From the NCBI GenBank assembly GCA_963707215.1, contig CAVPPB010000002.1:384001-448000 (forward strand): a DNA stretch of 64,000 nt. The letters are read 5' to 3'. Every line of letters begins with the position of its first letter. Position 1 is the stretch's first letter. The position numbers and the translations under genes are program-made. The notes under the pieces were generated by a model that worked only from the letters and a program-made list of their open reading frames with translations, did no database searches and was not told the DNA's origin. Below are positions 601 through 52,001 of the stretch, in pieces. This stretch comes from an uncultured Chloroflexia bacterium. Lineage in GTDB: Bacteria > Chloroflexota > Limnocylindria > Limnocylindrales > CSP1-4.

Positions 601-2346
601 TCAGCGGTGAGCGCAGACGACATCGACCAGCGCTGGTCGCTGCTCCTCCAGGACCACCCGGGCGGCTCGTCGGATGGCATCGCCGATGGCATCGGGCCCC
701 TCGATCGGTCCCTCGGCATACCAATCGAAGCCACGGGCGATCGTGGCGAAGTCGGGGGCCGGATCGTCGATGGCGACCCCGACGTGGGCCCTGGCGAGGT
801 CGGTGCCGCGGGCCCGGGCCATCCGGATCTGGTGCTCCCAGTCGTTGAAGTAGGCGCGGTTGTCGTACATCACGACGAGCATCGGGATCCGGTGGGCCGA
901 GGCCACCCAAAGAGCCCCGACGTCGAACATCAGGTCGCCGTCGGGCTGGAGGTCGACGACCAGTCGACCGCTGCCCTTGTGGGCGAGCGCGACGCCGAGC
1001 GAGATCCCGATCTGGGTCGCCGTCCCCTGGCTCCGCCCGGCGTGGCGGTAGCTCCGATCGACGTCCCAGAGTCGAAGCGCCCACTCGCTGGCGGTGCCGG
1101 CCGTGAGGACCCAGTCATGCTCCCGGATCGCCTCCCAGGTCTCGGCTGCCAGGCGCGGTGGGGAGACCGGTCGCTCGTCCCAGCGGCGCCGGGCCGTGGC
1201 CGCCCATCCCGCCCGCGCAGTCGCATGGAGGTCGGCCAGGGCCACCCGACGGGCTTCGCGTTCGGCGGCCCGGCGTTCGCCCTCGGCGGCGATCCGTGCT
1301 GCGACCGACTCGGCCAGTGCAGGCAGCGCGATCGAGCTGTCGGCGATCAGCCTCAGGTCCATCGGGACGGCGGGACCCACGTCGTGGACCCACGAGGAGA
1401 CCTGGAGGTCGTCGAAGCCGAGGCTCACGACCCTGGCGTCGGGGTGGAGCCTCGACCTCGACTCACGGGCGGGCGGGTCGGTGGTCAGCAGGACGCGTGA
1501 CACGTCGCGCATGTCGAGCAGCAGGACCAGATCGGCCTCGCCGATGGCGTCCGTCCCGGTCACGTTCAGGCGATGGGTGCTCGGGACGCTCAGGCGGTCG
1601 TTCGTGTCGATCAGGCCCGCGCCGAGCGTCTCCGCCAGGCGGGGGAGCAGCTCGAAGACGGCCGGATCGCGGCCGGCGAACCCGGACACGATGATCGGTC
1701 GGCTGGCGCCGACGAGCAGGGTCGCCAGCTCCTCGAGGGCGGCCGGGTCGACCCCGATGGGCCTCGCGGGGCCCTGTCGACCCCAGTCGACCGCCGGGAC
1801 CGGGCCATCGAGGGGGCGCTCCTGGAGGTCCGCGTCGAGGGCCAGGTAGACGGGCCCCGTCGGCTCGGCCAGGGCGAGCGAGCGGGCCCGAGCGAAGGCG
1901 GCCGGCATCGCCTCGATCGAGGCCGGCTGGTCATCCCACTTGGTGTACTCCCGGACCGCCGACCCCTGGATGTTGGTGGTGTGGATCCAGTCGATCCACG
2001 GTCGACGTCGGGCCGTGTCCATGGGGCCCGCGCCGCCCAGGACGAGCACCGGGGCGCGGTCCAGGTAGGCCGTGAAGATGCCCAGCGTCCCGTGGAGCAG
2101 CCCGACCGTGTCGTGGAGGATCGCCGCCATCGGCTCATGCGCCGCCTTGGCGTAGCCGTGGGCGATGTTGACGGCCAGCTTCTCGTGGGGGACCAGGATC
2201 ATCTCGGGGGCACCGGCGCGGTTGACGAGGGAGTCGTGAAGCCCCCGGAAGCTGGCTCCCGGGTTCAGGGCCACGTAGCGGATCCCCTGGCCGGCGAGAA
2301 GGTCGACCATCACGTCGGATCCGTATCGCGGGGCGTCGGGTTCCAT
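601..2346 (-). CDS. Thiamine diphosphate-dependent enzyme (benzoylformate decarboxylase/acetolactate synthase superfamily)
   Basis: NPGASFRGLHDSL, HE (catalytic Glu) and ThDP-binding PDGD..(x)n..DN motif; 581 aa. Confidence 0.85.
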   Translation of the reverse strand: MEPDAPRYGSDVMVDLLAGQGIRYVALNPGASFRGLHDSLVNRAGAPEMILVPHEKLAVNIAHGYAKAAHEPMAAILHDTVGLLHGTLGIFTAYLDRAPVLVLGGAGPMDTARRRPWIDWIHTTNIQGSAVREYTKWDDQPASIEAMPAAFARARSLALAEPTGPVYLALDADLQERPLDGPVPAVDWGRQGPARPIGVDPAALEELATLLVGASRPIIVSGFAGRDPAVFELLPRLAETLGAGLIDTNDRLSVPSTHRLNVTGTDAIGEADLVLLLDMRDVSRVLLTTDPPARESRSRLHPDARVVSLGFDDLQVSSWVHDVGPAVPMDLRLIADSSIALPALAESVAARIAAEGERRAAEREARRVALADLHATARAGWAATARRRWDERPVSPPRLAAETWEAIREHDWVLTAGTASEWALRLWDVDRSYRHAGRSQGTATQIGISLGVALAHKGSGRLVVDLQPDGDLMFDVGALWVASAHRIPMLVVMYDNRAYFNDWEHQIRMARARGTDLARAHVGVAIDDPAPDFATIARGFDWYAEGPIEGPDAIGDAIRRAARVVLEEQRPALVDVVCAHR

Positions 2347-2408
2347 GGCGGTCGAGGCCCTCGTTCGGACGGTTGGTGTACCGCTGCATACGCTACCATG
2401 GCGCGGTC

Positions 2409-2966
2409 ATGCGACCGACGCCGCAGCGGCACATCCAGATAGCGATCGAGGTCAACGGACAGGCGGTCGAGCGGACCGTGCCGACCGACCTGCGCCTCAT
2501 CGACCTCCTGCGCGACGATCTAGAGCTGACCGGGACCAAGGAGGGTTGCGCGGTCGGTGTCTGCGGCGCCTGCACCGTCCTCCTCGATGGCCAGCCGGTC
2601 TCGGCATGTCTGCTCCTGGCCGTCCAGGTGGATGGGCGTCGGCTTGCCACGATCGAGGGACTCCGCGCGGAGGACGGGACGCTGACCCCGGTCCAGGCCG
2701 CCTTCATCCGCCACGGCGGCTTCCAGTGCGGGATCTGCACGCCGGGCCAGGTGATGGCCGCCTCGGCCCTCCTCGCCGAGGACCCGACCCCGGATGACGA
2801 TCGGATCCGCGAGTGGATGACCGGCAACCTCTGCCGCTGCACCGGCTACTACGGCATCGTCGCCTCGATCCGTGCCGCCGCCGGGCTGCCACCCCAGCCG
2901 TCGCTCCGGCCGCCAGGACCTGTCGCGCCCCGGGATCCGTCGACGGATGAGAGGGCGGCTGGGTGA
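2409..2966 (+). CDS. (2Fe-2S) small subunit, CoxS/XdhC-type Mo-hydroxylase #1
   Basis: GTKEGCAVGVCGACTV, FQCGICTPG, GNLCRCTGY. Start placed at ATG 2409. Confidence 0.92.
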   Translation: MRPTPQRHIQIAIEVNGQAVERTVPTDLRLIDLLRDDLELTGTKEGCAVGVCGACTVLLDGQPVSACLLLAVQVDGRRLATIEGLRAEDGTLTPVQAAFIRHGGFQCGICTPGQVMAASALLAEDPTPDDDRIREWMTGNLCRCTGYYGIVASIRAAAGLPPQPSLRPPGPVAPRDPSTDERAAG

Positions 2967-3832
2967 GCGGCTTCCGCTACGAGCGCCCCGGAGACCTGGA
3001 GGCAGCACTCGGGCTCCTGGAACGTCACGGTGACGAAGCGCACCTGCTGGCGGGTGGGACGTCGTTCATGCTCCTGTACCGCCAGGGCCTGATCGACCCG
3101 GAGGTGGTCGTCGACCTGGCCGGCGTCGAGTCCCTTCGTGGCATCCGGCGACTCGATGACGGGTCGGTCGAGGTCGGAGCGCTCTGCAGCCTCCGCGAGA
3201 TCGAGACCGACGAGCTCCTCGGCTCGGCCCTGCCGGTCCTCGCCCGGACGGTGGCCCGGGTCGCCACGATCCGCATCCGCAACCAGGCCACCATCGGCGG
3301 GAACCTCGTCCACGCCGATCCGGCCCAGGACCCGCCACCGGTACTGCTGACCCTCGATGCTTCCGTGGTCGTCCGGGGCCCGACCGGTGAGCGGATCCTG
3401 CCGCTCCATGGGTTCTTCGTCGACGTCTTCGAGACGGTCGTCGAGCCCGGTGAGATCGTCACCGCGATCCGGGTTCCCCTCCCGCCGCCCGGGAGCCGGC
3501 TCGGCTACCGCAAGTTCCTGCCGCGGACCGTGGACGACTACGCCACGGTCAGCGTGGCCGGTCGGCTGGACGTCGATCCCGACGGCACGATCAGCGACGC
3601 CCGCCTGTTCCTCGGGGCGGTCGGACCGACGCCGATCCGGGCGACCGCCGCAGAGGATGCCGTGCGCGGCGCTCGGGTCGCCGACCTCGATCCGGCGATC
3701 GTCGGCCCGCTCGTCATCGGATCCGTCGATCCGGTCGACGACGTTCGCGGTTCGGCTGACTACAAGCGCGAGATGGCGGCGGTCTGGGCGGTCCGGCTGG
3801 TGGGTTCACTGTGCTCGGAGAACCCGGCGTGA
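2963..3832 (+). CDS. FAD-binding medium subunit (CoxM/CutM-like), Mo-hydroxylase #1
   Basis: LAGGTS, IRNQATIGGN, DDVRGSADYK; GTGA overlap with upstream gene. Confidence 0.92.
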   Translation: MSGFRYERPGDLEAALGLLERHGDEAHLLAGGTSFMLLYRQGLIDPEVVVDLAGVESLRGIRRLDDGSVEVGALCSLREIETDELLGSALPVLARTVARVATIRIRNQATIGGNLVHADPAQDPPPVLLTLDASVVVRGPTGERILPLHGFFVDVFETVVEPGEIVTAIRVPLPPPGSRLGYRKFLPRTVDDYATVSVAGRLDVDPDGTISDARLFLGAVGPTPIRATAAEDAVRGARVADLDPAIVGPLVIGSVDPVDDVRGSADYKREMAAVWAVRLVGSLCSENPA

Positions 3833-6126
3833 GCACGTCCCGACCGGCGCCGGATGCCGGGACCCTGGAGGCCCTCCGTCGCCCCGAGGAACGGATCGAG
3901 GGCCGGGCGAAGGTGACCGGCGCGGCGCGCTACGCTGCCGATCGCCTCCCGGCGGGCGCCCTGTGGGCCCGGTTCATGGGCAGCCCGCTGCCCCATGCCC
4001 GCATCCGGTCGATCGACGCGAGCCGCGCCCGGGCCATGCCGGGCGTCCACGCCGTCCTGACCGGCGAGGATCTCCGGGGCATCCGGTTCGGACGCCGACT
4101 GCAGGACCGCCCGCTGCTCGCCTGGGACCGTGTCCTGTTCGTCGGGGACCGGCTGGCCGCGGTCGCGGCGGAAACGCCGGAGCAGGCCGAGGCCGCCCTT
4201 GCCGAGATCGAGGTCGATCTCGAGGAGCTGCCGCCTATCCTCGACCTCCGTGACGCACAGGACGACGACGCCCCGGTACTCCACCCGGAGGCTGCCGAGT
4301 ACCGCTACCTCGACGGTGAGCGGCCCGCGGTGCCGCATCCCAACGTCCAGGGACGCCTGACCGTCGACCGCGGAGCCGAGGACCTCGACGCCGTCTTCGC
4401 CGGCGCGGCGGAGATCCACGAGCATCGCTTCTCAACGCCGCGCCAGCACGCCGCCTACATCGAGCCGCACGCAACGGCGGTCTGGATCGATGGGGACGGG
4501 GTCGTCCACGTCATCACCACGAACAAGGCGCCGTACACCCTCCGCAAGCAGATGGCCGCGGCGCTCGACCTGCCGGCTGACCGGATCATCGTCGACGCCG
4601 AGTACATCGGGGGCGACTTCGGCGGCAAGGGCTACTCGATCGACGAGTACGGTTGCTGGGCCCTGGCCAGGGCGACCGGGCGGCCGGTCCGATCGATCAC
4701 CCGCTACGCCGATGAGCTCGGCGCCCTCAACGTGCGGCACGCCTCGGAGATCCGCCTGCGGACGGCGCTCGATGCCGACGGTCGCCTCCTGGCTCACGAG
4801 GCCGTTGTGATCCTCGACGGCGGAGCGTACGCCTCCGCCAAGCCGCTGCCCCACCTGGCCCTGGCCGGCGCCATCGCCAGCCTGGCCGCGTATCGGGTCC
4901 CGAATGCCCGGATCGACGTCCGGACCGTCTACACGAACACCGTCCCCGGCGGCCACATGCGGACCCCCGGCGAGGTGCAGGCGCTCTTCGCAGGGGAGTC
5001 TCATCTCGACGGGATCGCCCGGGCCCGGGGCGAGGACCCGCTGGCCTTCCGCCTGCGCAATGCGGTCACGACCGGCGACGAGGGTGCCGGCGGCCAGCGC
5101 TTCCGGGAGGCGCGCGCGGTCGAGGTCCTGGAGGCCGTGCGGGATGCGCTGCCCTGGGATCGGCCGCTGCCGCCGGACCACGGCCGAGGCGTCGCCCTGA
5201 GTGCCCGTCACGTCGGTGGCGGGAAGATGCCCCTGGCCCTCGTCCTCTCGGCCGACGGCCGCATCGAGGTCCTGACCGGGCTGGCTGACCAGGGTGGCGG
5301 TGCCTGGACGGTCATCGAGCGCGTGCTGGCCGCCTCGCTATCGCTTGACGAGGCTCGGATCACCGTCCGTCACGTTCCGACCAGCGAGTCACCCTTCGAT
5401 CCCGGGATCGGCGGGAGCCGGGTCACGCACATCGCGAGCCGCTCGGCGGAGCTCCTCGCCGACCAGCTCCGCGAGTGGTTGGACGAGCGTCTTCCGGCGG
5501 CGCTCCCGGGCGCGCGGGATGGGGTCGTCCTGCGCGGTGAGCGCTTCGTCGACCGGACGACGGGCACCACCCTCGCGACCTTCGACGAGGTCGTGGCCCT
5601 GGTCGTCCGTCCCGACGAGCCGGTCCGGCTCTCGGCGACCTACGTGACCGAAGCCCACGGCGAGGACGAGGGCGGCGACTATGACTTCGGGGCGTGCGCG
5701 GTCGTCGTCCACGTGGACCGCGCGACGGGCGAGGTCCGTGTCATCGATGCGCTCCTGGTCGCCGACGTCGGGACGATCATCAACCCGGTCGCGCACCGAG
5801 GGCAGCTGGAGGGTGGGTTCATCTTCGGTCTCGGCGGCGCGCTCATGGAGGAGCTCGTCATGGATGGTGGAGCCGTGACGACCCTCAGCCTCGCCGACAT
5901 GAAGATCCCGTCGATCGGGGACGTGCCGCCCCTCCGCGTGGTGGAGTTGCCGACGACCATCGGGCCAGGGGCGTTCGGCGCCAAGATGGCCGGCGAGCTG
6001 ACCAATGCGCCGGTGGCGCCGGCGATCGCCAATGCCGTTGCCGACGCCATCGGGGTCCGCATCGTCGACCTGCCGATCAGCGCCGAGCGGGTCCACCGGG
6101 CGCTTCGGGAGTCCGGGCGCCACTGA
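3829..6126 (+). CDS. Xanthine dehydrogenase-family molybdopterin-binding large subunit #1
   Basis: KVTGAARYAAD, YIEPH, GGDFGGK, GQLEGG, AKMAGE. Active-site loop is HMRTPG, not CODH AYRCSFR. Confidence 0.92.
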   Translation: MSTSRPAPDAGTLEALRRPEERIEGRAKVTGAARYAADRLPAGALWARFMGSPLPHARIRSIDASRARAMPGVHAVLTGEDLRGIRFGRRLQDRPLLAWDRVLFVGDRLAAVAAETPEQAEAALAEIEVDLEELPPILDLRDAQDDDAPVLHPEAAEYRYLDGERPAVPHPNVQGRLTVDRGAEDLDAVFAGAAEIHEHRFSTPRQHAAYIEPHATAVWIDGDGVVHVITTNKAPYTLRKQMAAALDLPADRIIVDAEYIGGDFGGKGYSIDEYGCWALARATGRPVRSITRYADELGALNVRHASEIRLRTALDADGRLLAHEAVVILDGGAYASAKPLPHLALAGAIASLAAYRVPNARIDVRTVYTNTVPGGHMRTPGEVQALFAGESHLDGIARARGEDPLAFRLRNAVTTGDEGAGGQRFREARAVEVLEAVRDALPWDRPLPPDHGRGVALSARHVGGGKMPLALVLSADGRIEVLTGLADQGGGAWTVIERVLAASLSLDEARITVRHVPTSESPFDPGIGGSRVTHIASRSAELLADQLREWLDERLPAALPGARDGVVLRGERFVDRTTGTTLATFDEVVALVVRPDEPVRLSATYVTEAHGEDEGGDYDFGACAVVVHVDRATGEVRVIDALLVADVGTIINPVAHRGQLEGGFIFGLGGALMEELVMDGGAVTTLSLADMKIPSIGDVPPLRVVELPTTIGPGAFGAKMAGELTNAPVAPAIANAVADAIGVRIVDLPISAERVHRALRESGRH

Positions 6127-6174
6127 CGCGGCCGGCGCCGGCCGGCGGCAGGCGTCCCGTGCCGGTCCCGACGA

Positions 6175-6852
6175 TCAGCCCTCGCTGTCCTTCGTTCGCC
6201 GGGAGCGCCGCCGCTGCTCCGGACCCTCCCAGCGTGGTGCCATCCGATGGTCGGTCCGGATCCCAAGGGTGTCGATCAACCGAGCGACCGTGTGGTCGAT
6301 CAGCTGGTCGATCGAGGTCGGGCGATTGTAGAAGGCCGGCGCAGGCGGGAAGATCGTCGCCCCGATCTCGCACGCCTGGACCATCAGCCGAAGATGTCCG
6401 AGGTGGAGCGGGGCTTCCCGGGGCACGAGCACCAGCGGGCGCCGTTCCTTGAGGGTGACGTCGGCGGCGCGTTCGATCAGGTTGTCGCTCGTCGACAGGG
6501 CGATCCCGGACAACGTGCCCATGGAGCAGGGGACCACGATCATCGCGTCGATCGGGAACGAGCCGCTGGAGATCGACGCGGCGATGTCCCCGAAGCGGTA
6601 GCTGACCGAGGCCAGGGCTTCCACGTCACCTGGATCGCGGTCGGTCTCGAGCTGGATCGTCTGGCGGGCGGCTGCGCTCAGGACGAGGTGCGTCTCGACG
6701 TCCTCGAGCTCGGCGAGCGTCTCCAGGAGGCGGATGCCGTAGACGACGCCGCTGGCGCCGGACATCCCGACGACGAGGCGGAACGGCTCGAGCGGACCAC
6801 GGGTGTGTCGAGCCATCGGGCGGCTCGCTGGTCGGGGCTTCTCCTCGGGCAT
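6175..6852 (-). CDS. ubiX: Flavin prenyltransferase UbiX
   Basis: GMSGASG, ISSGS, PCSMGTL, RAADVTLKERRPLVLVPREAP, PAFY. Confidence 0.95.
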   Translation of the reverse strand: MPEEKPRPASRPMARHTRGPLEPFRLVVGMSGASGVVYGIRLLETLAELEDVETHLVLSAAARQTIQLETDRDPGDVEALASVSYRFGDIAASISSGSFPIDAMIVVPCSMGTLSGIALSTSDNLIERAADVTLKERRPLVLVPREAPLHLGHLRLMVQACEIGATIFPPAPAFYNRPTSIDQLIDHTVARLIDTLGIRTDHRMAPRWEGPEQRRRSRRTKDSEG

Positions 6853-7117
6853 GTCTCGATCCTATCCGTCCACACACGAACCTGCGCGGCCGCTGGTGGC
6901 CGATCCACCGGTAGGGACCCGCATTTGCCGGTTGCCAGCCGGCAAGGCTCCATGGTACACATGGTGCGCTGACGAGTGCGACGGTATGCAGCGCTGCGAT
7001 TCGACTGCGTCCGCCGTGCCCGCGAGGAACTCCGGCCGTCGGCCGATCCTCGGGCGGCGGGGAAGGGACCCATCGCTCGATCGCGTCGACCTTCGTCCGG
7101 ACGAGGAGGAGCGTCTC

Positions 7118-8212
7118 ATGCTCGATCGGTTCGGCCGGTCCAGGTGGCTGGCCATCGTCGCGGTCGCGGGACTTGCGGTCGCCGCCTGCACCGGGGGCGC
7201 CACCCCGGAGCCGTCCCCTGAGCCTTCGACCGCTCCGGCGTCGTCCGAGCCGAGCGCGGAGCCGAGCGCCGACCCGAAGGCCGCCCGCGACCAGATCTGC
7301 GCGGAGGCGGCGGCCGAGGAGGGCGAGCTCGTCTACTGGAGCAACTTCGCCAACCCCGACCCCATCCTCGATGCGTTCAGCGAGCAGTACCCGGGGATCG
7401 AGGTCCAGGACCTGGCCAACCACCCGGATGACTTCGTCCAGGCGATGCTGACCGAGCTGTCGGCTGGACGCTCTCCGAGCGCCGACATCATGTACGGCGA
7501 GCTGAACGTCCTGAAGCCGCTCATCGATCTGGGTGCCATCGACGACTCCATCGACTGGGTGTCCTATGGGGTCCCTGAGGAGCTCATCCCGCCCCCGGCC
7601 AATGTCGTCCGCCTCTACCGGATCGCCGGCGGGATCGTCTACAACACCAACAATCACAGCCCCGAGGATCTCCCCGATACCTGGGAAGAGCTCATCGACC
7701 CGCAGTGGGAGAACCAGATCGTCGTCGACCCGCGCGGCCGGCCGTTCGACCAGCTGTCCCTGATCTGGGGCCATGACGAGACCATCGACTACGTCACCCG
7801 GCTGAACGATCTGAAGCCCATCGTCATCAGGGGCGGCACCGCCGGCATGCTGGCCGTCGCCTCGGAGCAGGCGGCCATCACGACCGGTGGCCGCTCGGCC
7901 GAGACGCTCGAGCAGCAGGACGCCGGTGCCCCGCTCGACATCAAGTACCTCGACGTCATCACGACCCTCGACACGTTCAACATGGTGCCGAAGGACGTCG
8001 CCCATCCCAAGGCGGCGATCTGCATGGTCTCGTGGCTAGCCACCGACGGCCAGGCCATCCACGACGAGGCCGAGTTCAAGGCCAACGTCACCGTCCCGCC
8101 GGGCACGCCGGAAGGCGCCGAGTTCTCCGACGTGGTGACGACCGAGGACGCCGAGGCGGTCGGTGCCATCGGCGAGGAGATCGGCGCGATCTTCGCCGGC
8201 ACCGGCGGCTGA
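7118..8212 (+). CDS. ABC transporter substrate-binding lipoprotein (Fe3+/thiamine/polyamine SBP cluster)
   Basis: RBS GAGGAGG before ATG 7118; lipobox VAAC; Pro/Ser linker; EGELVYW, YNT..PDTWEEL, HPKAA. Confidence 0.85.
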   Translation: MLDRFGRSRWLAIVAVAGLAVAACTGGATPEPSPEPSTAPASSEPSAEPSADPKAARDQICAEAAAEEGELVYWSNFANPDPILDAFSEQYPGIEVQDLANHPDDFVQAMLTELSAGRSPSADIMYGELNVLKPLIDLGAIDDSIDWVSYGVPEELIPPPANVVRLYRIAGGIVYNTNNHSPEDLPDTWEELIDPQWENQIVVDPRGRPFDQLSLIWGHDETIDYVTRLNDLKPIVIRGGTAGMLAVASEQAAITTGGRSAETLEQQDAGAPLDIKYLDVITTLDTFNMVPKDVAHPKAAICMVSWLATDGQAIHDEAEFKANVTVPPGTPEGAEFSDVVTTEDAEAVGAIGEEIGAIFAGTGG

Positions 8213-43731: not shown

Positions 43732-45177
43732 TCAGCTCCCCCCGATCCCGGCGGTCGACTCGATGCCGGGCAGCGTCCGCGGATCACTGACGACGCCGTG
43801 GACGGCACTCGCCGCGGCCGTCAGCGGCGAGGCCAGGAGCGTTCGCCCGCCCTTGCCCTGGCGGCCCTCGAAGTTGCGGTTGCTGGTGCTGATGGCGTAC
43901 TGCCCGGGCGACAGCTGGTCGCCGTTCATGGCGATGCACATCGAGCAGCCGGCCTCGCGCCACTCCGCACCGGCCGCCCGGAAGACCTCGGCGAGGCCCT
44001 CCAGCTCGGCCTGCTTCTTCACCTCGGTCGAGCCGGGCACGACCATGACCCGGACGCCCTCGGCGACCCGACGCCCGCGGAGGACCTCGGCCGCCAGGCG
44101 GAGGTCGGAGATGCGGCCGTTGGTGCACGAGCCGATGAAGACGACGTCGACCTTCTGCCCCAGGATCGGCTGGCCGGGGCGCAGGTCCATGTACTCGAGG
44201 GAGCGCTCGAGCGCCCGCCGAGCGGCGGCGTCCTCCTGCTCGTCCGGGGAGGGGACCGCGGCGCTGATCGGGATCCCCATGCCGGGGTTCGTGCCGTAGG
44301 TGACCATCGGCTCGAGGGCTGCCGCGTCGATGACGATCGAGCGGTCGAACTCGGCGTCCTCGTCGGTCGGGAGGGCTCGCCACGACTCGATCGCGGCGTC
44401 CCAGGCGGTGCCCTGTGGGGCGTGGGGCCGCCCGGCGATGAACTCGAACGTCGTGTCGTCCGGTGCGACCAGTCCGGCCCGGGCCCCGCCCTCGATGCTC
44501 ATGTTGCAGATCGTCATCCGCTGCTCCATGGTCAGCGCGCGGATGGCCTCGCCGCGGTACTCGAAGACGTGCCCGGTCCCGCCGCCGATGCCGATCCGGG
44601 CGATGAGGGCGAGGATGATGTCCTTGGCGCTTACGCCTGGCTTCAGCCGCCCGTCGACCCGGACCTCGTAGGTCCTCGGCCGGCGCTGCAGCAGGGTCTG
44701 GGTGGCGAGGACCATCTCGACCTCGCTGGTCCCGATGCCGAAGGCCAGCGCCCCGAAGGCGCCGTGCGTGCTGGTGTGACTGTCGCCGCAGACGATCGTC
44801 ATCCCCGGCTGGGTCAGCCCCAGCTCCGGCCCGATGACGTGGACGATGCCCTGGTGAGGGGAGCCCATCCCGTGGAGCGGGATCCCGAACTCACGGCAGT
44901 TGGCCTCGAGCTGGGCGACCTGGGCCGCCGCCATGGTGTCCAGGATCGGCAGGCTGCGGTCGTGGGTCGGGATCGAGTGGTCGGCGGTGGCGACCGTTCG
45001 TTCGGGGTGGCGGACGCGCAGGCCGCGGGCCCGGAGACCGGCAAAGGCCTGGGGGCTGGTGACCTCGTGGACGAGGTGCAGGTCGATCGCCAGGACCGTC
45101 GGTGCACCTGGGTCCTGGGCGACGACATGGTCGTCCCAGATCTTCTCGACGAGGGTTCGCGGTCGGGTGTCGGACAC
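43732..45177 (-). CDS. leuC: 3-isopropylmalate dehydratase large subunit
   Basis: [53 protein letters not shown]. Start GTG 45177. Confidence 0.96.
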
Positions 45178-45387
45178 GGCGGGGCGACTCGCTGCGGTTC
45201 GAAGGAGCCTAGAGGGTAGCAGAGGCGGTCCGAGCGGCAGGTCCCCCGGCTCCGTCCGGCTCCCGGGGGCGGCCCGTCCGGCCCTTGGCCCGCGGCCCGG
45301 GCTGCGCTTGGCTGGAGCCGTAGCAGCCGGCCGTCGCGACGTCCGTGCCGTCGCCGCGCCCCGCGGTCGCTTCCTGGTGGAGCTCCC

Positions 45388-48054
45388 GTGTTCGAGCTGC
45401 TTGGTCGCCTCGTCGTTCGCCTCCGCCTCCCCATCGTCGTCGCCTGGCTGGTCGCTGCCGCGATCCTCTTCTTCGCCCCGTCGCTGCAGGACGTCGGCAC
45501 GGCCGACGAGTCCAGCTTCCTGCCGCGCGACGTCGGATCGGTCGCGGCCCGTGAGCTGCTGGCCAGGGGCTTTCCGGAGGACGACGCGGTCGGCACGGCG
45601 ACCCTGGTCCTCGTCCGCGAGCCCGGCCCCCTGACCGACGCCGATCGTGCCTACCTCGACGAGCTGGCGGCGTGGCTGACCGACCCCGCTTCGGACCCGG
45701 CCCTGGATGGCGCCGTCAAGATGGTCGTGACGGCCGCGACCCGGCCGGAACGCGCGGCGCTCCTGAGGAGCGAGGACGGCACGACCGAGATCGCGACGAT
45801 CGAGCTGACCGTGCCGGCGTTCCAGGAGCGCGCCAACGAGGTGGTCGCGGCGCTGAGAGCGCGGATCGCCGGGACGGCCCCCGACGGCCTGCGCGTCCAC
45901 GTCACCGGTCAGGCCGCCATCGGCGCCGACTACCTCCGGGCCATCGTCGACGGGACCGACCGGACGACGGTCGTGACGATCGCCCTGGTCATCGTCATCC
46001 TGCTGGCGATCTACCGGGCTCCGCTCGCCGCCCTGGTACCGCTCCTGACGATCGGCGCCGCCTTCCTCGTCGCCCGTGGGCTCCTCGGGTGGCTGGCCCA
46101 GGCCGGCTGGTCGCTGAGCACCCTGATCGACTCCTTCGTCGTCGTCCTCGTCTTCGGCGTCGGAACCGACTACACCATCTTCCTCATCAGCCGCTACCGC
46201 GAGGAGCTGGGCCGGGTCGGCGCAGGTTCGCGGGACGCGGCGGGCCGAGGGATCGCCGCCCGGGTGACCGTGACCCGGATCGGTGCCGTGATCACCGCCT
46301 CCGCGGCCACCGTGGTCGTCGGTCTCAGCGCCATGGTCATCGCCCGGTTCGGGATGATCCAGACGACCGGCCCCGCACTGGCCATCGCTATCGTCGTGGC
46401 CCTGGCGGCGGGCCTGACCTTGGCGCCGGCGCTGCTCGTCCTCTTCGGGCCGGCGCTGTTCTGGCCACGTCACCCCAGGCCCGTCGGCCAGGAGACGGGT
46501 GCCGGCGTCTGGGACCGCGTGGCTGCCGGCATCGTCCGTCGGCCGCTGGTCGTCTCCCTGGTCGTCATCGCCGCCATGGCCCTGCCGATCCTGCTCATCC
46601 CCGGCGCCCGGACCGACTTCGACACGCTGGCCGAGCTGCCGGCCGAGTCGGACGCCCGGATGGGCTTCGACGTCGTGGCCGACCACATGGACAAGGGGCG
46701 GCTCATGCCGATCATCGTCGCCATTCGGACGCCGGCGACCGACCTGACCTCGCCCGACGGCCTGACCGCGATCGCGGCCCTCGGCGATCGCCTGGCCGCG
46801 GTAGACGGCGTGGATTCGGTCCGCAGCCTCGTCAGCCCGACCGGTGAGGGCACCCCGGACGAGATGCGGATCTCGCCGCGCCTGCTCGAGCTGGCCGATG
46901 GGCTCGAGCGCCTGGGGGCTGGTCCAGCGGCGGTCCAGCTCGCCCTGGCCGATCCCGGCGCCGTGGCCGGACTGCGCACGGGACTGGGCTGGCTGGAGGC
47001 CAGGGCCGATGACGTGCCCGCGTTCCGTGCGCTGCCCGGGGCCGGCTCGCTCCGTGCCGACCTCGTGACCCTGACCGCCGCGATGGAGCGACTAGCGGCC
47101 GCCGACGACCCGGCGACGGCTGCCGCCCTGGCCGGCGAGGCGTCCCAGGCCGCCGGGCGGGCTGCAGCGGCCCTCCGCTCGGCTGGCGTGGAGCTGGCCG
47201 GCGATCCCCGCCGCGACCTCTACCTCCCCGATGTCTCGGGGGGCGACGCCGGGGAAGAGCTCGACCGCCTCGTCGGCGAGTTCGTCGGTCCGGACGGGTC
47301 GGTCGGGCGGATCTACGTCGTCGCCGCAGACGACCCCTACTCGACGGTCGCCTTCGAGACGGTCGACCGGCTGCGCGACGCCGTGAGCGGGCAGATCGAG
47401 GGTATGCCCGAGGAGACGACCGTGCTGGTCGGCGGCTCGACCGCCGAGTTCACCGACATTCGGACGACGATGGACGGCGACTTCCGCTCGGTGGCCGTGG
47501 TCACGGTCATCGGCGTCCTGCTCGTCCTTGTCGTGCTCCTGCGGAGCCTGGTGGCCCCGATCTTCCTGGTCGCCACGGTCCTGCTGTCCTACGGCACGAC
47601 CCTCCACGTCGCTGGCGGCCTGTTCGAGGGCGTGCTGGGTCATGGCGGCATGAACTACTTCCTGCCCCTGCTCGTCTTCGTCCTCCTGGTCGCCCTCGGC
47701 TCGGACTACAACATCTTCGTGGTCAGCCGCATCCGCGAAGAGAGCGCCCACCGGCCCATCCGCGACGGCATCCGGGTGGGTGCGGCCCGGACCGGCACGG
47801 TCATCACCTCGGCCGGGATCATCCTGGCCGGGACCTTCGCGGCCCTGATGACGGCGCCCCTGGAGCTGCTCTTCCAGGTGGGCGCGGCAGTCGCCCTCGG
47901 CGTCCTGCTCGACACCTTCGTCGTCCGCAGTCTCCTCGTGCCGGCCCTGATCGCGGTCTTCGGGGACCTGTCCTGGTGGCCCTCCGGATGGCATCGCCGG
48001 CGGCTCCCGCGCGGACGTCGTGCCGAGCTCTCGTCGGCGGGCCGGGGCCCCTGA
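45388..48054 (+). CDS. MMPL family (RND) transporter
   Basis: [18 protein letters not shown] and [17 protein letters not shown] repeats; 888 aa. Confidence 0.92.
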
Positions 48055-48125
48055 CGTCGACCCGATCGCTGCCCGGTCGGCTATCCGACCGCGCCCCCCG
48101 ATGGCTCGATGGTGTCCGCCGGCCG

Positions 48126-48139
48126 GTACCCTCGGGCCA
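48126..48139 (+). promoter_or_regulatory. GTACC-N3-GRGCCA box, copy 1 of 3 (others at 48849-48862 and 49334-49347)
   Basis: GTACCctcGGGCCA / GTACCcatGAGCCA / GTACCttcGGGCCA, one upstream of each unit of the locus. Confidence 0.55.
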
Positions 48140-48201
48140 CATCGCCGCTCCCCACCGGCGGTGTACGAACCCCCCGAGCATCCCGGCTCGAAGGAGACAC
48201 C

Positions 48202-48777
48202 GTGTTCATCCTCTATGCGCTCCTGGTCGGGCTCGTCGTCGGAGCGCTGACGGGGGGCCGACCGGCCCGCCTCGGCTCGCTGGAGATCCGCTGGCCATGG
48301 GTCATCGCCGGCGGACTCGCCGCCCAGCTGATCCTCTTCTCCGAGCCCGTGACCCGGGTCGTGGGCGACGCCGGGCCGCCCCTCTACATCCTCTCGACGC
48401 TGGCGGTCCTTGCTGCCGTCAGCGTCAACCGGCGGATCCCGGGCATCCCCCTGGTGATCGCCGGTGCCGTTTCGAACATGACCGCCATCGTCGCCAACGG
48501 CGGGTACATGCCGACCACGCCTGAGGCCCTGGCGGCCCTCGGCAAGCTGCCTCCGGAGACCTACTCGAACAGCTCGGTGCCGATCTCGCCGATGCTCTGG
48601 CCGCTGACCGACATCTTCGCCATGCCGGCCTGGCTGCCCTTCGCCAACGTCTTCAGCATCGGCGACGTGCTGATCGGGCTCGGCATCGCGATCGCCGTGG
48701 TCGCCACGATGCGCCGGCCGGACGCCGATCCGGTGCCGCCCGGGGCGGCGGCCCCTCCGGGGGTCCTCGTCCCCTAG
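48202..48777 (+). CDS. DUF5317-family membrane protein; putative LspA-like aspartic peptidase
   Basis: RBS AAGGAG then GTG 48202; GG.P.RL..L..RW, N..ANGGYMP, LTDIF, VFSIGDVLI. Family recognised by motif; peptidase role is inference. Confidence 0.75.
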   Translation: MFILYALLVGLVVGALTGGRPARLGSLEIRWPWVIAGGLAAQLILFSEPVTRVVGDAGPPLYILSTLAVLAAVSVNRRIPGIPLVIAGAVSNMTAIVANGGYMPTTPEALAALGKLPPETYSNSSVPISPMLWPLTDIFAMPAWLPFANVFSIGDVLIGLGIAIAVVATMRRPDADPVPPGAAAPPGVLVP

Positions 48778-48930
48778 GGGCACCGACCGACCCTCCCTCG
48801 AGCGGTCGTGGCGCCCCGGTGCACCGGCGAATCGGATCGGGCCCCCCGGTACCCATGAGCCAGTGGCCGCGATCCGGCCGTCACGTAGCGGTCGCCCCCG
48901 AGGGCGACGTCCGCCTTCCGCCGCAAGGCC

Positions 48931-49011
48931 GTCCAGGGCAAACCCGTCGCGAGGCGGGGACGCAAAGCCAGGGATCTTCAAGGACCAACGAAGACCGCCC
49001 GGTTGCCGGAC
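48931..49011 (+). promoter_or_regulatory. Cyclic di-GMP-I (GEMM) riboswitch
   Basis: GTCC-AGGGCAAACCCGTC-GCGA-GGCGGGGACGCAAAGCC...GGTTGCC-GGAC shows GEMM core motifs, a GNRA-capped P2, P3 TCTTC/GAAGA and P1 GTCC/GGAC. Confidence 0.9.
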
Positions 49012-49048
49012 CTACGGTGAGGTCTCGGGGAACGAGAGGTACAGACAC

Positions 49049-49138
49049 GTGAAGGCGAACCTGGCGCGCTTCACCACGGCCGTCGCGCTCCTGGCGTCGA
49101 TGGCCCTCACCCTTGGCGCGGGGATGCGCTGGTGGTAG
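49049..49138 (+). CDS. 29-aa signal-peptide-like micro-protein MKANLARFTTAVALLASMALTLGAGMRWW
   Basis: RBS GAGAGG about 9 nt before GTG; directly under the riboswitch; n-region/h-region layout. Confidence 0.7.
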   Translation: MKANLARFTTAVALLASMALTLGAGMRWW

Positions 49139-49170
49139 CTCCCTAGACGGGAACGACAAGGGAGACGACC

Positions 49171-49245
49171 ATGGACACGCTGAACATCCCCCTCGAGGAT
49201 CGGGTGCCGGCCGTTGGTCCGATGGCCGGTCATCGGTGGAGCTGA
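49171..49245 (+). CDS. 24-aa micro-protein MDTLNIPLEDRVPAVGPMAGHRWS
   Basis: RBS AAGGGAG 6 nt before ATG; C-terminus AGHRWS mirrors AGMRWW of the upstream peptide; absent from the ORF track. Confidence 0.55.
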   Translation: MDTLNIPLEDRVPAVGPMAGHRWS

Positions 49246-49278
49246 TCGCGACGACCGGTCGCGGCGGCCCGCATCGAG

Positions 49279-49307
49279 CGACCGCCGGGCGTCATGCCCG
49301 GCGGTCG
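49279..49307 (+). terminator. Hairpin closing the riboswitch-peptide transcript
   Basis: CGACCGCCGGGC-gtcat-GCCCGGCGGTCG (12-bp perfect stem, no U-tract). Confidence 0.55.
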
Positions 49308-49430
49308 AGCGATTCAGGGGCTGGGACCGGTCCGTACCTTCGGGCCAGTCTCCCGGGGCTCGCTGCGGGCTAGTCTCGAGCCCTCCGGGGCGGTCCGGAC
49401 GACCTGCCCCGAGCCTGCCGTACCAAGGGA

Positions 49431-52001
49431 GTGCCTGTGACCCCGAACCGGGTCATCCGAGCGCGCGCGATCGGGCTGTCCGTCGTCCTGGCTCGCCGCC
49501 CCAGGCTCGAGCCGTCGCAACGCGTCTGGCTGCTGACCATCGGCCTGGCCGTAGCGGCGACGCTCGTGCTCGCGCTGTCCGGCGGCTTCCTGTCCGGACG
49601 GGCGACGTCGGCGATCCCCTGGCCGCTCATCGCCCTGGGGATGTACCTGGCCGAGGTCAAGGTCGTCGTCGTCCACTTCCGTCGCGAGAGCCACTCCTTC
49701 TCGCTGAGCGAGATCCCGGCCGTCATCGGACTCTTCCTCCTGAGCCCCATGGACTACGTGCTGGCGGCGACGATCGGACCGACCCTGGCCTTCGTCTACC
49801 CGGCCCGTCAGCCCTTCATCAAGGCGGCCTTCAACGCCGTCAACTACCTTCTCATCGCCTCGGTCTCGCTGGTCACCTTCCAGATCCTGGCGCCCGGCGG
49901 CGTCGTCGGCCAGCCGGGCGCCCAGGCCTGGCTGGCGGCCTTCGTGGCGATGCTCGTCTCCACGGTCATCAGCAGCCTGACCATCGCCTCGGTCATCACC
50001 CTGTCGGGCGGGGCGCCGCAGTTCCAGAAGATGCCGGAGATGCTCCAGTTCGGCGGTCTCGTGGCGCTCGCCAACACCAGCATCGGTCTCCTTGCCCTCG
50101 CGGTCGTCAGCGTCGACCCGGCCGGCATCTGGCTCCTGATCGTGCCCATCGCCGCGGTCTTCCTTGCCTACCGGGCCTACGTCTCGGAGCGTGAGAAGAA
50201 GGAACGCCTGGAGCTGCTCTACCAGTCGAGCCGCATCCTCCAGCACACGCCCGAGCTCGACGCGGCGCTGATCGCCTTGCTCGACCACGCCCGCGACATG
50301 TTCCGGTCCGAGCGGGTCGACTGCCGTCTCGTGCCGGCGGCCGGGGGGCCCGTCCTGCTGACCCGCTCGCTGCTCGATGTCGAGCCGATCGTCATGGAGG
50401 CCCAGCCCGAGGGTCCGGACGACGAGCTCTCGGCCGTGCTCCAGCAGCGGAGCGACGCCTTCATCTACCGGCCGGAGGCACCGGGCTCCGGGATCCGCCA
50501 GGCGATGGTCGCTCCGCTGGCCGGCGAGGACCGGCCGATCGGCCACCTCATCGTCGCCAACCGGCTGGGGGAGGCCTCCTCCTACGGGGTCGACGACCTT
50601 CGCCTCCTCGAGACGCTCGCCGGGCAGGTGGCCGTCGCCCTCCAGAACGGCCAGCTGGAGCAGTCACTCACGGAGCTGTCCCGGCTGAAGGACGAGCTCC
50701 GTCACCAGGCCTATCACGACTCCCTGACAAGGCTGGGCAACCGGGTCCTCTTCGCCGAGGCCGTCGAACAGAGTCTGGCCGTGGCCTCGGACCTGGAGAC
50801 CGTCGTCCTGTTCCTGGACCTCGACGACTTCAAGATGGTCAACGACACGATGGGTCATGCCGTCGGGGACCGGCTCCTGGGCGTCGTCGCCGAGCGCATC
50901 TCCCGGAGCGTCCGCGAGACCGATGTGGCGGCCCGCCTGGGTGGCGACGAGTTCGCGGTCCTGGTCCACGACCAGCCCGATCTCCGGGTCGCACTGGCCC
51001 TGGCCGGTCGGCTCCGCGAGGAGCTCCATCGTCCCGTCCGCCTGGGTGGCAGCGAGACGGTGGTCGACGTCAGCATCGGGATCGCCGCCGCCTCGAAGGG
51101 CGTCGGCGCCGACGAGCTGCTCCGCAACGCGGACATCGCGATGTACAAGGCCAAGACCGATGGCAAGGGCCGGGTGGCGCTCTTCGACCCGACGATCCAT
51201 GCCGCCATCGTCGCCCGCCATGCCCTCGGGACGGACCTGACCCGGGGGCTCCTGCAGAACCAGTTCGAGCTCTACTACCAGCCGATCGTCGTGCTCGGGA
51301 CGGGATCGATCTCGGGCTACGAGGCGCTGCTGCGCTGGCATCACCCGCAGCGCGGTCTGATCACCCCCGACGACTTCATCCGGGTGGCCGAGGAGACGGG
51401 CTCCATCGTCGACATCGGGGCCTGGGTCCTCCGGGAGGCCTGTGGGCAGGCCACGGCCTGGTCGGCCCTGCCCGGCATGGACGATCGGCTCTCGATCAGC
51501 GTCAACGTCTCGCCGCGCCAGCTCCAGGACCCGGAGTTCGTGGACCTTGTCCTGGGAGTGCTCCGCGAGACCAGCCTTCCGCCCGAGCGGCTCGTCCTCG
51601 AAGTGACCGAGACGGCGATGTTCCAGGACCCGGTCACCGTCGGCGCGAAGCTCGAGGCGCTCCGCGAGGTGGGTGTGCGGGTCGCCCTGGACGACTTCGG
51701 CACCGGCTATGCATCGCTCAGCCATCTCCGCCGGTTCCCGGTCGACATCCTCAAGATCGCCCGCGACTTCGTCGTCGACGCCGACGCCGAAGACGACGCC
51801 TGGGCCTTCGCGGCGGCGATCGTCGCACTGGCCCGGACCCTCCAGCTCCAGGTCGTGGCGGAGGGCATCGAGCAGTCGCGCCAGGTCGAGCGGCTGCGCG
51901 GCCTCGGGTGCCAGCTGGGCCAGGGCTACTTCCTCGCCCGCCCCGCTCCGGCGGCGGTCATCGATGCTTCCATCGGCGCCGTCGGCTCGGCGACGGCCTG
52001 A
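49431..52001 (+). CDS. Membrane (~7 TM) sensor - GAF - GGDEF - EAL diguanylate cyclase/phosphodiesterase
   Basis: Hydrophobic N-terminal ~245 aa; GAF-like segment; HDSLTRLGNR, RETD I-site, RLGGDEF, EALLRW, DDFGTGY, AEGIE. Confidence 0.93.
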   Translation: MPVTPNRVIRARAIGLSVVLARRPRLEPSQRVWLLTIGLAVAATLVLALSGGFLSGRATSAIPWPLIALGMYLAEVKVVVVHFRRESHSFSLSEIPAVIGLFLLSPMDYVLAATIGPTLAFVYPARQPFIKAAFNAVNYLLIASVSLVTFQILAPGGVVGQPGAQAWLAAFVAMLVSTVISSLTIASVITLSGGAPQFQKMPEMLQFGGLVALANTSIGLLALAVVSVDPAGIWLLIVPIAAVFLAYRAYVSEREKKERLELLYQSSRILQHTPELDAALIALLDHARDMFRSERVDCRLVPAAGGPVLLTRSLLDVEPIVMEAQPEGPDDELSAVLQQRSDAFIYRPEAPGSGIRQAMVAPLAGEDRPIGHLIVANRLGEASSYGVDDLRLLETLAGQVAVALQNGQLEQSLTELSRLKDELRHQAYHDSLTRLGNRVLFAEAVEQSLAVASDLETVVLFLDLDDFKMVNDTMGHAVGDRLLGVVAERISRSVRETDVAARLGGDEFAVLVHDQPDLRVALALAGRLREELHRPVRLGGSETVVDVSIGIAAASKGVGADELLRNADIAMYKAKTDGKGRVALFDPTIHAAIVARHALGTDLTRGLLQNQFELYYQPIVVLGTGSISGYEALLRWHHPQRGLITPDDFIRVAEETGSIVDIGAWVLREACGQATAWSALPGMDDRLSISVNVSPRQLQDPEFVDLVLGVLRETSLPPERLVLEVTETAMFQDPVTVGAKLEALREVGVRVALDDFGTGYASLSHLRRFPVDILKIARDFVVDADAEDDAWAFAAAIVALARTLQLQVVAEGIEQSRQVERLRGLGCQLGQGYFLARPAPAAVIDASIGAVGSATA

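Follow-up and report, generated by a model that had tools for sequence, protein, structure and literature searches.

LspA, the signal peptidase II of MEROPS family A8 (Peptidase_A8, PF01252), is the described protein closest in structure to the one considered here, and is represented in the Protein Data Bank (PDB) by entries 5DIR, 6RYO and 6RYP. According to a published account of the Staphylococcus aureus enzyme (PMC6952399), it is built of four helices and a beta-cradle and contains 14 residues of high conservation (D21, K25, N52, G54, G102, N106, D109, R110, V116, D118, F132, N133, A135 and D136), among which D118 and D136 make up the catalytic dyad and are 18 residues apart. The same spacing is found in LspA of Escherichia coli K-12, which carries GGALGNLFDR..VVD123..FNLAD141. 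We analysed a stretch of 64,000 nucleotides (hereafter the window) from an uncultured Chloroflexia bacterium of the CSP1-4 lineage (assembly GCA_963707215.1, contig CAVPPB010000002.1, positions 384,001 to 448,000 of the forward strand). A first-pass annotation of this window had quoted the E. coli motifs correctly, and proposed that the product of the gene at 48202..48777, a member of the DUF5317 family, adopts the LspA fold and is dedicated to a neighboring pre-peptide devoid of Cys.

Our analysis established the family membership of this protein, the invariance of an Asp pair, a weak structural likeness to LspA and the conservation of a gene module. The data fit an arrangement in which cyclic dimeric guanosine monophosphate (c-di-GMP) controls whether a membrane micropeptide is made, and in which DUF5317 handles that peptide beside a c-di-GMP enzyme. 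That DUF5317 is an LspA-like peptidase partner of riboswitch-gated micropeptides within a c-di-GMP feedback module is quite possible, and is put forward here as a tentative reading. The context that could be added to the first-pass annotation comprises a riboswitch, a GAF-GGDEF-EAL partner, two additional DUF5317 modules elsewhere in this genome, and homologues in which DUF5317 is fused to transporters of the major facilitator superfamily (MFS) or to c-di-GMP enzymes.

DUF5317 and its invariant aspartates

The DUF5317 gene (48202..48777, plus strand) codes for 191 residues between a GTG start and a TAG stop, with AGGAG located 5 nucleotides 5' of the start codon. Homologues share the beginning MFILY, and for this reason the start at 48202 was favored over an upstream ATG at 48109. 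The translation, which includes IAGAVSN and LTDIFAMPAWLPFANVFSIGDVLIGLG, matched the Pfam family PF17248 (DUF5317) at 96.7 bits (gathering cut-off 25; E value 1.7e-27) over profile positions 2–150 of 151, and the same family was matched by all 67 of the DUF5317 representatives. A scan of NCBIfam returned no model at E ≤ 1 for either the DUF5317 protein or the 29-residue peptide encoded downstream of it. A homologue search recovered 2,839 proteins with E ≤ 0.001 among 8,000 candidates scored, while 4,657 representatives reached this threshold in a library clustered at 50% identity. A control search also detected DUF5317 in Thermus thermophilus and Thermotoga maritima. Our literature search found no paper in which "DUF5317" is mentioned. 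DUF5317 is a large family with a function that lacks a published account.

The first-pass annotation had pointed to two Asp residues 18 positions apart, and the translation bears this out: they are D137 (codon 48610–48612, plus strand, in L-T-D-I-F) and D155 (codon 48664–48666, plus strand, in S-I-G-D-V). Both are invariant in 43/43 close homologues and in 67/67 diverse representatives with 31–55% identity. Lack of conservation of this pair had been named beforehand as a finding that would speak against the proposal; in the 219 full-length family members (identity down to 32%), D137, S152, G154 and D155 were present without exception, and Q42, N92, N99, P104, P142 and P146 were each kept in 218. 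The D...SxGD pattern was also found in 22 of 23 longer, fused forms, the lone exception appearing to be frameshifted. Conservation of D137 and D155 is far beyond chance. Their spacing varies within the family, being 15 in the MFS-fused paralogue of this genome and 17 in another homologue (P0262).

An AlphaFold2 model of the whole protein, with a predicted local distance difference test score (pLDDT) of 87.0 and a predicted TM score (pTM) of 0.81, displayed helices at residues 2–16, 32–45, 48–74, 82–98 and 153–170 and a 54-residue loop with short strands. A second model, restricted to the core (residues 30–175, built with 79 sequences), gave a pLDDT of 94.8 and a pTM of 0.86. When the positive-inside rule was applied to the helices of the model, five transmembrane helices were predicted, with the N-terminus outside, the C-terminus inside and the loop that contains both Asp residues outside. 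In both models a two-residue strand (139–140) stands just after D137 and another (150–151) just before D155; D137 and D155 would be close together if these strands pair, a point on which the DSSP string is silent.

Resemblance to LspA

The first-pass annotation had suggested an AlphaFold model and a Foldseek comparison with LspA, and for the core model this comparison placed an LspA chain, 5dir_C, at rank 1 of the 350,542 PDB chains (E 2.2, TM score 0.45/0.44); 6ryp came fifth and 6ryo_A ninth, and all three matches fell short of significance. A wide search with the VIA aligner, independent of Foldseek, was run with both models. With the full-length model, 13 of the 48,161 representative chains covered reached Z ≥ 5, and these included both LspA cluster representatives (5dir_A, Z 5.1, root-mean-square deviation (rmsd) 3.2 Å over 93 residues, 19% identity; 6ryp_A, Z 5.1, 97 residues, 20% identity), which clearly exceeded the remaining rows in identity. 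With the core, few alignments were long; 5dir_A (Z 5.8) and 6ryp_A (Z 5.6) belonged to these, and the rows ranked higher were mostly helical hairpins of 45–51 residues. VIA re-alignment of the 62 chains that Foldseek had listed for the core put the three LspA entries at ranks 1–3 (6ryo_A, Z 6.2, rmsd 2.9 Å, 92 residues, 18% identity; 5dir_C, Z 6.1, 94 residues, 21% identity; 6ryp, Z 5.6), with rmsd values of 2.9–3.1 Å over 91–94 residues and 18–21% identity. Overall, residues 42–181 of DUF5317, a protein of five helices, align to residues 54–163 of LspA, that is, to its helices H2–H4 (Z 5.1–6.2, TM score 0.36–0.45); with the core model the aligned part of DUF5317 is 42–175. By range arithmetic on 6ryo_A, D155 would fall on D136 of the S. 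aureus enzyme, and D137 would then fall on D118, given the equal spacing. The models thus suggest that the last three helices of DUF5317 find their best PDB match in LspA, while the overall architecture differs.

Local motifs run parallel in the two proteins: the last helix opens with F-[NS]-x-[AG]-D, and the preceding helix contains G-A-x-x-N. By motif alignment, five of the 14 conserved LspA residues are identical in DUF5317 (G88, N92, D137, F151 and D155) and two are conservatively replaced (S152 and G154). Where LspA has the Asp-Arg of its GNxxDR motif (D109/R110), DUF5317 has A95/I96, and the same alignment gave no counterparts of S. aureus D21, K25, N52, G54 and V116. In both models helices 32–45 and 48–74 are joined by two non-helical residues with no sheet, and a beta-cradle is absent. 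Because of the extra N-terminal helix, the missing beta-cradle and GNxxDR Asp-Arg, an insert of approximately 33 residues and the count of 5/14 residues, DUF5317 does not belong to family A8.

Peptidase_A8 was the only second family to match more than one DUF5317 representative (3/67 at E ≤ 1), and the sub-threshold match of the window protein to PF01252 pairs its residues 79–169 with profile positions 84–140. When the whole genome was searched with PF01252, the DUF5317 gene scored 12.1 bits versus 123.9 bits for the true lspA gene, which has ileS and a pseudouridine synthase gene as its neighbors and lies on contig 1, a separate contig from that of the window; since the genome has a canonical LspA of its own, DUF5317 is an extra protein. 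Along the lines of the HHpred check proposed in the first-pass annotation, DUF5317 was compared with LspA alignments by hhalign. A first run (probability 6.5%, P 0.0056) covered the last helix with D155 only, while another (probability 2.6%, P 0.018) aligned D137 with the Asp of VVD and D155 with that of FNxAD.

Several results weigh against an LspA-related peptidase. When hhalign was given the largest alignments (219 versus 120 sequences), the top match shifted to an unrelated helix, helix 1 (score 21.5), and the region of the two Asp residues scored 15.4 (P 0.14). In a control with 100 LspA profiles whose columns had been shuffled, the scores had 13.6 as median, 18.2 as 95th percentile and 22.6 as highest value, so that the two-Asp scores obtained overall (15.4–19.4) are within or near the range of the shuffled controls, and the sequence evidence was therefore treated as noise-level. 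A PDB sequence search with the single protein and with a 43-row profile produced no match at E ≤ 10. Taken alone, the sequence evidence for a likeness to LspA is at noise level. The direct match to PF01252 reached 13.9 bits (E 0.065), where 25 would be required, which does not place the protein in family A8, and neither this score, the Foldseek E value of 2.2 nor a Z of about 6 is significant. With the full-length model, Foldseek listed 24 rows, none of them an LspA entry and none at E ≤ 0.001, and VIA re-alignment of these 24 chains added nothing; an ESM Atlas search with PF17248 clusters skipped gave no usable match. VIA itself warns that Z < 8 is common for helical proteins and bundles, and a Z of about 6 hence makes the likeness suggestive and not proof.

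What remains of the fold proposed by the first-pass annotation is an invariant Asp pair, the motif parallels and the position of LspA as best structural neighbor of the core in two aligners; no significant score was obtained, and neither a beta-cradle nor the Asp-Arg of GNxxDR was found in the protein, nor a lipobox Cys in its partner peptide. On balance, we consider it somewhat probable that the core of DUF5317 is truly LspA-like.

Micropeptides and their c-di-GMP context

Neighborhoods were counted in 80 related genome loci and in 80 metagenome loci of distant subfamilies, and overall in 182 loci with a full DUF5317 domain. The Cys-less neighbor named in the first-pass annotation, an open reading frame (ORF) at 49049–49138 on the plus strand, proved to be a real and conserved partner gene, found in 63 of the 80 related loci. 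It starts with GTG and codes for a 29-residue peptide, VKANLARFTTAVALLASMALTLGAGMRWW, with a basic N-terminus, one hydrophobic helix, the tail L-G-A-G-M-R-W-W and no Cys. Its homologues, detected with tblastn and a hidden Markov model, immediately adjoin DUF5317 genes in relatives and also the second paralogue of this genome. We refer to peptides with the consensus K-A-N-L-A-R-F...L-G-A-G-x-R-W as class A (50/80 loci), and to those with ...L-E-A-G-x-R-W as class B (29/80); one or the other was found in 61 loci, and two further loci have a peptide on the other strand.

An alignment of 36 class A copies shows no exception at G23, A24 and W28 and near-invariance at K2, L5, R7, A19 and G25. The reading frame is under coding selection: the share of synonymous changes among differing codons was 0.42 in frame versus 0.13 and 0.07 in the other two frames. 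Cys is absent from 35 of these 36 peptides, and the single Cys (locus L058) is within the helix and not at the tail junction. The lipobox and diacylglyceryl-Cys that define LspA substrates are hence missing, and the peptides end in G-A-G-x-R/K-W. Distant subfamilies display two recurring orders, namely an upstream peptide ending in A-A-P-F-R-W followed by DUF5317 and a GGDEF gene, or peptide, HD-GYP gene and DUF5317. Among all loci with a full domain, a peptide of class A, B or C was found within 1.7 kb on the same strand in 114 of 182. Since the peptide stands beside DUF5317 even in distant subfamilies, the pairing is real and old.

The segment between the DUF5317 and micropeptide genes contains a predicted riboswitch aptamer of the c-di-GMP-I clan (48928..49011, plus strand), matched by the GGC-variant family RF03167 of Rfam at 65.6 bits (gathering score 59; E 7.6e-15), which places it in clan CL00126. 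The element is likewise placed in the three close relatives L021, L015 and L010 (65.0 and 59.4 bits with RF03167, and 61.7 bits with RF01051, for which the gathering score is 35), and a covariance model of our own produced 58 matches, spread over 54 of 80 related loci. As judged from the sequence, the predicted riboswitch precedes a gene of 29 codons, and its first regulated product is a micropeptide and not a protein of ordinary size. The folding z-score of the riboswitch leader was 0.04, and a scan of 48000–49500 returned no promoter-like site and, on the plus strand, no terminator-like site.

Following the micropeptide gene is a second short ORF (49171..49245, plus strand) of 24 residues, MDTLNIPLEDRVPAVGPMAGHRWS, at the site occupied in relatives by a class B micropeptide. 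It lacks a hydrophobic helix and has kept the tail A-G-H-R-W. Similarly non-hydrophobic ORFs ending in AGHRW or SGHRW were found in L010 and L015, and a full class B peptide in L021. In the three related genera that have the helix-less ORF (this genome, L010 and L015), its A/S-G-H-R-W tail appears to be selected on its own. Some relatives (L021 at 2265–2461; L081, L060, L090 and L075) possess two to four micropeptide genes, and some have two tandem riboswitches downstream of one DUF5317 gene.

Further downstream, the gene at 49431..52001 (plus strand) codes for a membrane-anchored GAF-GGDEF-EAL protein of 856 residues, as evidenced by Pfam matches to EAL (1.6e-71), GGDEF (3.8e-42) and GAF (6.5e-08); residues 1–250 matched no Pfam family at E ≤ 1. 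Homologues of this protein adjoin DUF5317 in 50/80 loci when searched with the EAL part and in 42/80 with the N-terminal membrane part, and are usually located immediately upstream of DUF5317. In two separate assemblies (L083 and L085), DUF5317 and GAF-GGDEF-EAL form one frame of 1,054 codons (2998–6162, plus strand), with the riboswitch and both peptides upstream on the opposite strand. We had considered that the peptide might serve as a leader for the downstream GGDEF-EAL gene, and rejected this, since that gene is upstream of DUF5317 in most relatives and since the peptide gene beside the L024 paralogue is the last gene of its strand.

The genome holds two further DUF5317 modules. One of them (L024) consists of a stand-alone DUF5317 with a class B peptide and no riboswitch. 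In the other (L023; G000:C2:14000-22000, minus strand), a c-di-GMP-II riboswitch (6185–6268; 59.6 bits versus 53.5) is followed by an ORF of 25 residues (5988–6065), an HD-GYP gene (4491–5399) and a DUF5317-MFS fusion (2290–4344). Two predicted riboswitch classes hence precede micropeptide genes next to DUF5317 in one genome. A large ORF of 528 residues (6336–7922) lies just upstream of the L023 riboswitch. Among 22 longer DUF5317 homologues, 11 are DUF5317-MFS fusions, one combines DUF5317 with MFS, HD-GYP and GGDEF, and one combines it with EAL. When sequencing runs were searched by sampled words, all 20 rows showed only small shares (at most 0.19); RNA accounted for two of these rows.

On the other side of the DUF5317 gene, an MMPL-family transporter gene (45388–48054, plus strand) lies directly upstream; it was rejected as a part of the module, a homologue being nearby in 0/80 related loci. 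The C-terminal part of a long minus-strand ORF (approximately 43732–45200) was judged by eye from its translation to resemble a LeuC-like large subunit of an aconitase-family dehydratase.

Possible roles of DUF5317 and related systems

In the mechanism that we propose, the four C-terminal helices of DUF5317 would resemble H2–H4 of LspA and present the Asp pair at the outer face of the membrane. The 29-residue peptide would insert with its N-terminus inside and its C-terminus outside, and its helix would dock sideways on the DUF5317 helices as a signal peptide does on LspA, so that the Asp pair could hydrolyse the peptide at the small-residue junction of the G-A-G-x-R/K-W tail. Processing would set the activity or the lifetime of the peptide, the peptide may modulate the membrane domain of the neighboring or fused GGDEF-EAL or HD-GYP enzyme, and c-di-GMP would control the supply of peptide through the riboswitch. 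Stated in full, DUF5317 would be a new LspA-related family of intramembrane aspartyl peptidases that process free-standing micropeptides, built like signal peptides, at the G-A-G-x-R-W tail. Either the processed peptide or the tail set free would tune a membrane GGDEF-EAL or HD-GYP enzyme, peptide synthesis would be gated by c-di-GMP riboswitches of two classes, and the system would be widespread in Chloroflexota; we consider this complete version rather doubtful. We infer that DUF5317 may cleave the peptide, and this is favored because the Asp pair lies in LspA-like motifs, the closest structure is LspA, the partner resembles a signal peptide with a small-residue junction, and fusions to exporters occur. 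The MFS-exporter fusions recall, by analogy, peptidase-transporter fusions.

To the results already held against a peptidase must be added those that concern the peptide itself. It is conserved over its full length, including the cytoplasmic N-terminus with the nearly invariant K2, L5 and R7, and a functional membrane subunit therefore fits better than a disposable signal peptide. There are usually 0–4 residues beyond the conserved Trp, so that a cleavage product would comprise only about 3–6 residues, and one peptide class has Pro at the junction (A-A-P-F-R-W), which is unfavorable for many peptidases. No adjacent peptide was found in 17 of the 80 related loci, one of which ends just after the riboswitch. 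In addition, the in-frame fusion of DUF5317 to the N-terminus of GGDEF-EAL in L083 and L085 looks like a sensor input domain.

Much of this is accommodated if DUF5317 were a non-catalytic receptor or scaffold for the micropeptide, in which the Asp pair grips the R/K-W tail and the complex serves as an input module for c-di-GMP enzymes, the likeness to LspA then being an inactive relic or a convergence. Such a role is possible, and is consistent with the fusion to the N-terminus of GAF-GGDEF-EAL in two assemblies, with the joining of DUF5317 to EAL, HD-GYP/GGDEF or MFS domains in longer homologues, and with a module that is nearly always tied to c-di-GMP enzymes. It would also account for a peptide that is conserved throughout and in which, toward the outer face, R/K27 beside W28 is the one charged position without variation, as well as for the Pro-containing tail class and the very short tail past the junction. 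Four of the eight columns that best separate DUF5317 proteins by peptide class (130, 136, 140 and 144) flank D137, a result that is confounded by relatedness and that speaks for this role and for the peptidase partnership alike. The same reading has to contend with D...S-x-G-D and several Asn residues that are near-strictly invariant even in fused forms, as expected of an active site, and with LspA, an enzyme, as the closest structure. A complex prediction of DUF5317 with the 29-residue peptide, made from alignments and without controls, scored 0.18 and 0.25 versus a mark of 0.32, for a partner below the 30-residue minimum of the calibration.

It is improbable that the resemblance to LspA arose by chance and that DUF5317 is a new five-helix fold with Asp residues unrelated to proteolysis or peptide binding. 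Every similarity score is under the accepted threshold, helical hairpins and designed bundles score equally or higher in the wide search, and the Asp spacing ranges from 15 to 18 in the family; yet LspA had been named as the hypothesis beforehand and still headed the Foldseek ranking with all three entries in the top 9, it showed the highest identity (18–21%) among the long alignments, and the aligned motifs coincide with its catalytic motifs. Finally, an action of DUF5317 on some other substrate at the outer face (lipid-linked, envelope, small molecule or ion), with the micropeptides as independent c-di-GMP-controlled regulators that share the operon, would agree with the loci that lack an adjacent peptide (17/80 close loci and 68/182 overall, many contigs being short), with genomes that have two or three DUF5317 paralogues in differing contexts and with MFS fusions that could point to a small molecule, but is hardly to be expected when the adjacency recurs across subfamilies only 31–45% identical, survives changes of gene order (peptide downstream, peptide upstream, or peptide-HD-GYP-DUF5317) and is found behind two riboswitch classes in one genome. 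The conserved tail on a soluble peptide of the 49171–49245 type is poorly fitted by every reading.

Should DUF5317 be an LspA-like peptidase, a protease class of which only one essential enzyme, an antibiotic target, is now known would gain a second branch, with gene-encoded micropeptides instead of lipoproteins as substrates, and a new peptidase family of this kind would add a layer of peptide feedback to c-di-GMP signaling that is widespread in Chloroflexota. Should it be a peptide receptor instead, the micropeptides would be the first candidate ligands or partners for membrane sensor domains of c-di-GMP enzymes that have no assigned signal. Either way, riboswitches, micropeptides and second-messenger enzymes are linked in a testable circuit of three or four genes, and DUF5317 becomes a candidate, open to testing, for a step of bacterial second-messenger signaling in which peptides are handled in a new way.

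Comparison with other systems places these proposals in perspective. The GxGD intramembrane aspartyl proteases (presenilin and signal peptide peptidase, prepilin peptidase, and FlaK) carry two Asp residues on neighboring membrane segments, the second of them in a small-x-G-D motif, and act on helices or leader peptides; their Asp residues are within the membrane or at its cytoplasmic face, and the families are much larger or of other topology. The sole link to DUF5317 is the resemblance of its S-x-G-D to that motif. The structure-search rows listed contained no presenilin, prepilin peptidase or FlaK chain, and these rows neither establish nor exclude a relationship. In exported pre-peptides of the Phr/RRNPP type, the C-terminal few residues are the signal. 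The micropeptides share with them a short pre-peptide with a signal-like helix, a very short C-terminal tail and variable flanks; they differ in that the module has no RRNPP receptor, the helix and N-terminus are unusually conserved and the tail would be only about 3–6 residues long.

Small single-pass membrane regulators, such as MgrB with PhoQ, act on sensors or enzymes. The likeness here is a one-helix peptide, some 30 residues in length, with conservation along its entire sequence and a gene next to that of a membrane partner; the differences are the predicted c-di-GMP riboswitch before the peptide gene, a partner with a protease-like Asp pair and an interaction that is only proposed. As described in a preprint by Galperin and Chou (bioRxiv 10.1101/2021.11.05.467447), MASE9-type domains provide HD-GYP and GGDEF-EAL proteins with an input domain embedded in the membrane, whose unidentified ligand is proposed to be bound within the membrane; the preprint mentions DUF5317 zero times, and enzymes of such a kind are the usual neighbors of DUF5317.

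Unlike LspA, DUF5317 counts five helices, one of them added at the N-terminus; a beta-cradle is missing, some 33 residues are inserted ahead of the first Asp, and the partner peptide has neither Cys nor lipobox. It also lacks the GNxxDR Asp-Arg, the Asp and Lys of H1 and the Asn and Gly of the cradle, which are among the 14 conserved residues of the S. aureus account (PMC6952399). In common with LspA, DUF5317 has two Asp residues, 18 apart, at the predicted outer face, a last helix that begins with F-[NS]-x-[AG]-D and follows one with G-A-x-x-N, last three helices that superpose in the models (Z 5.6–6.2), and a partner gene with a signal-peptide-like product ending in small residues.

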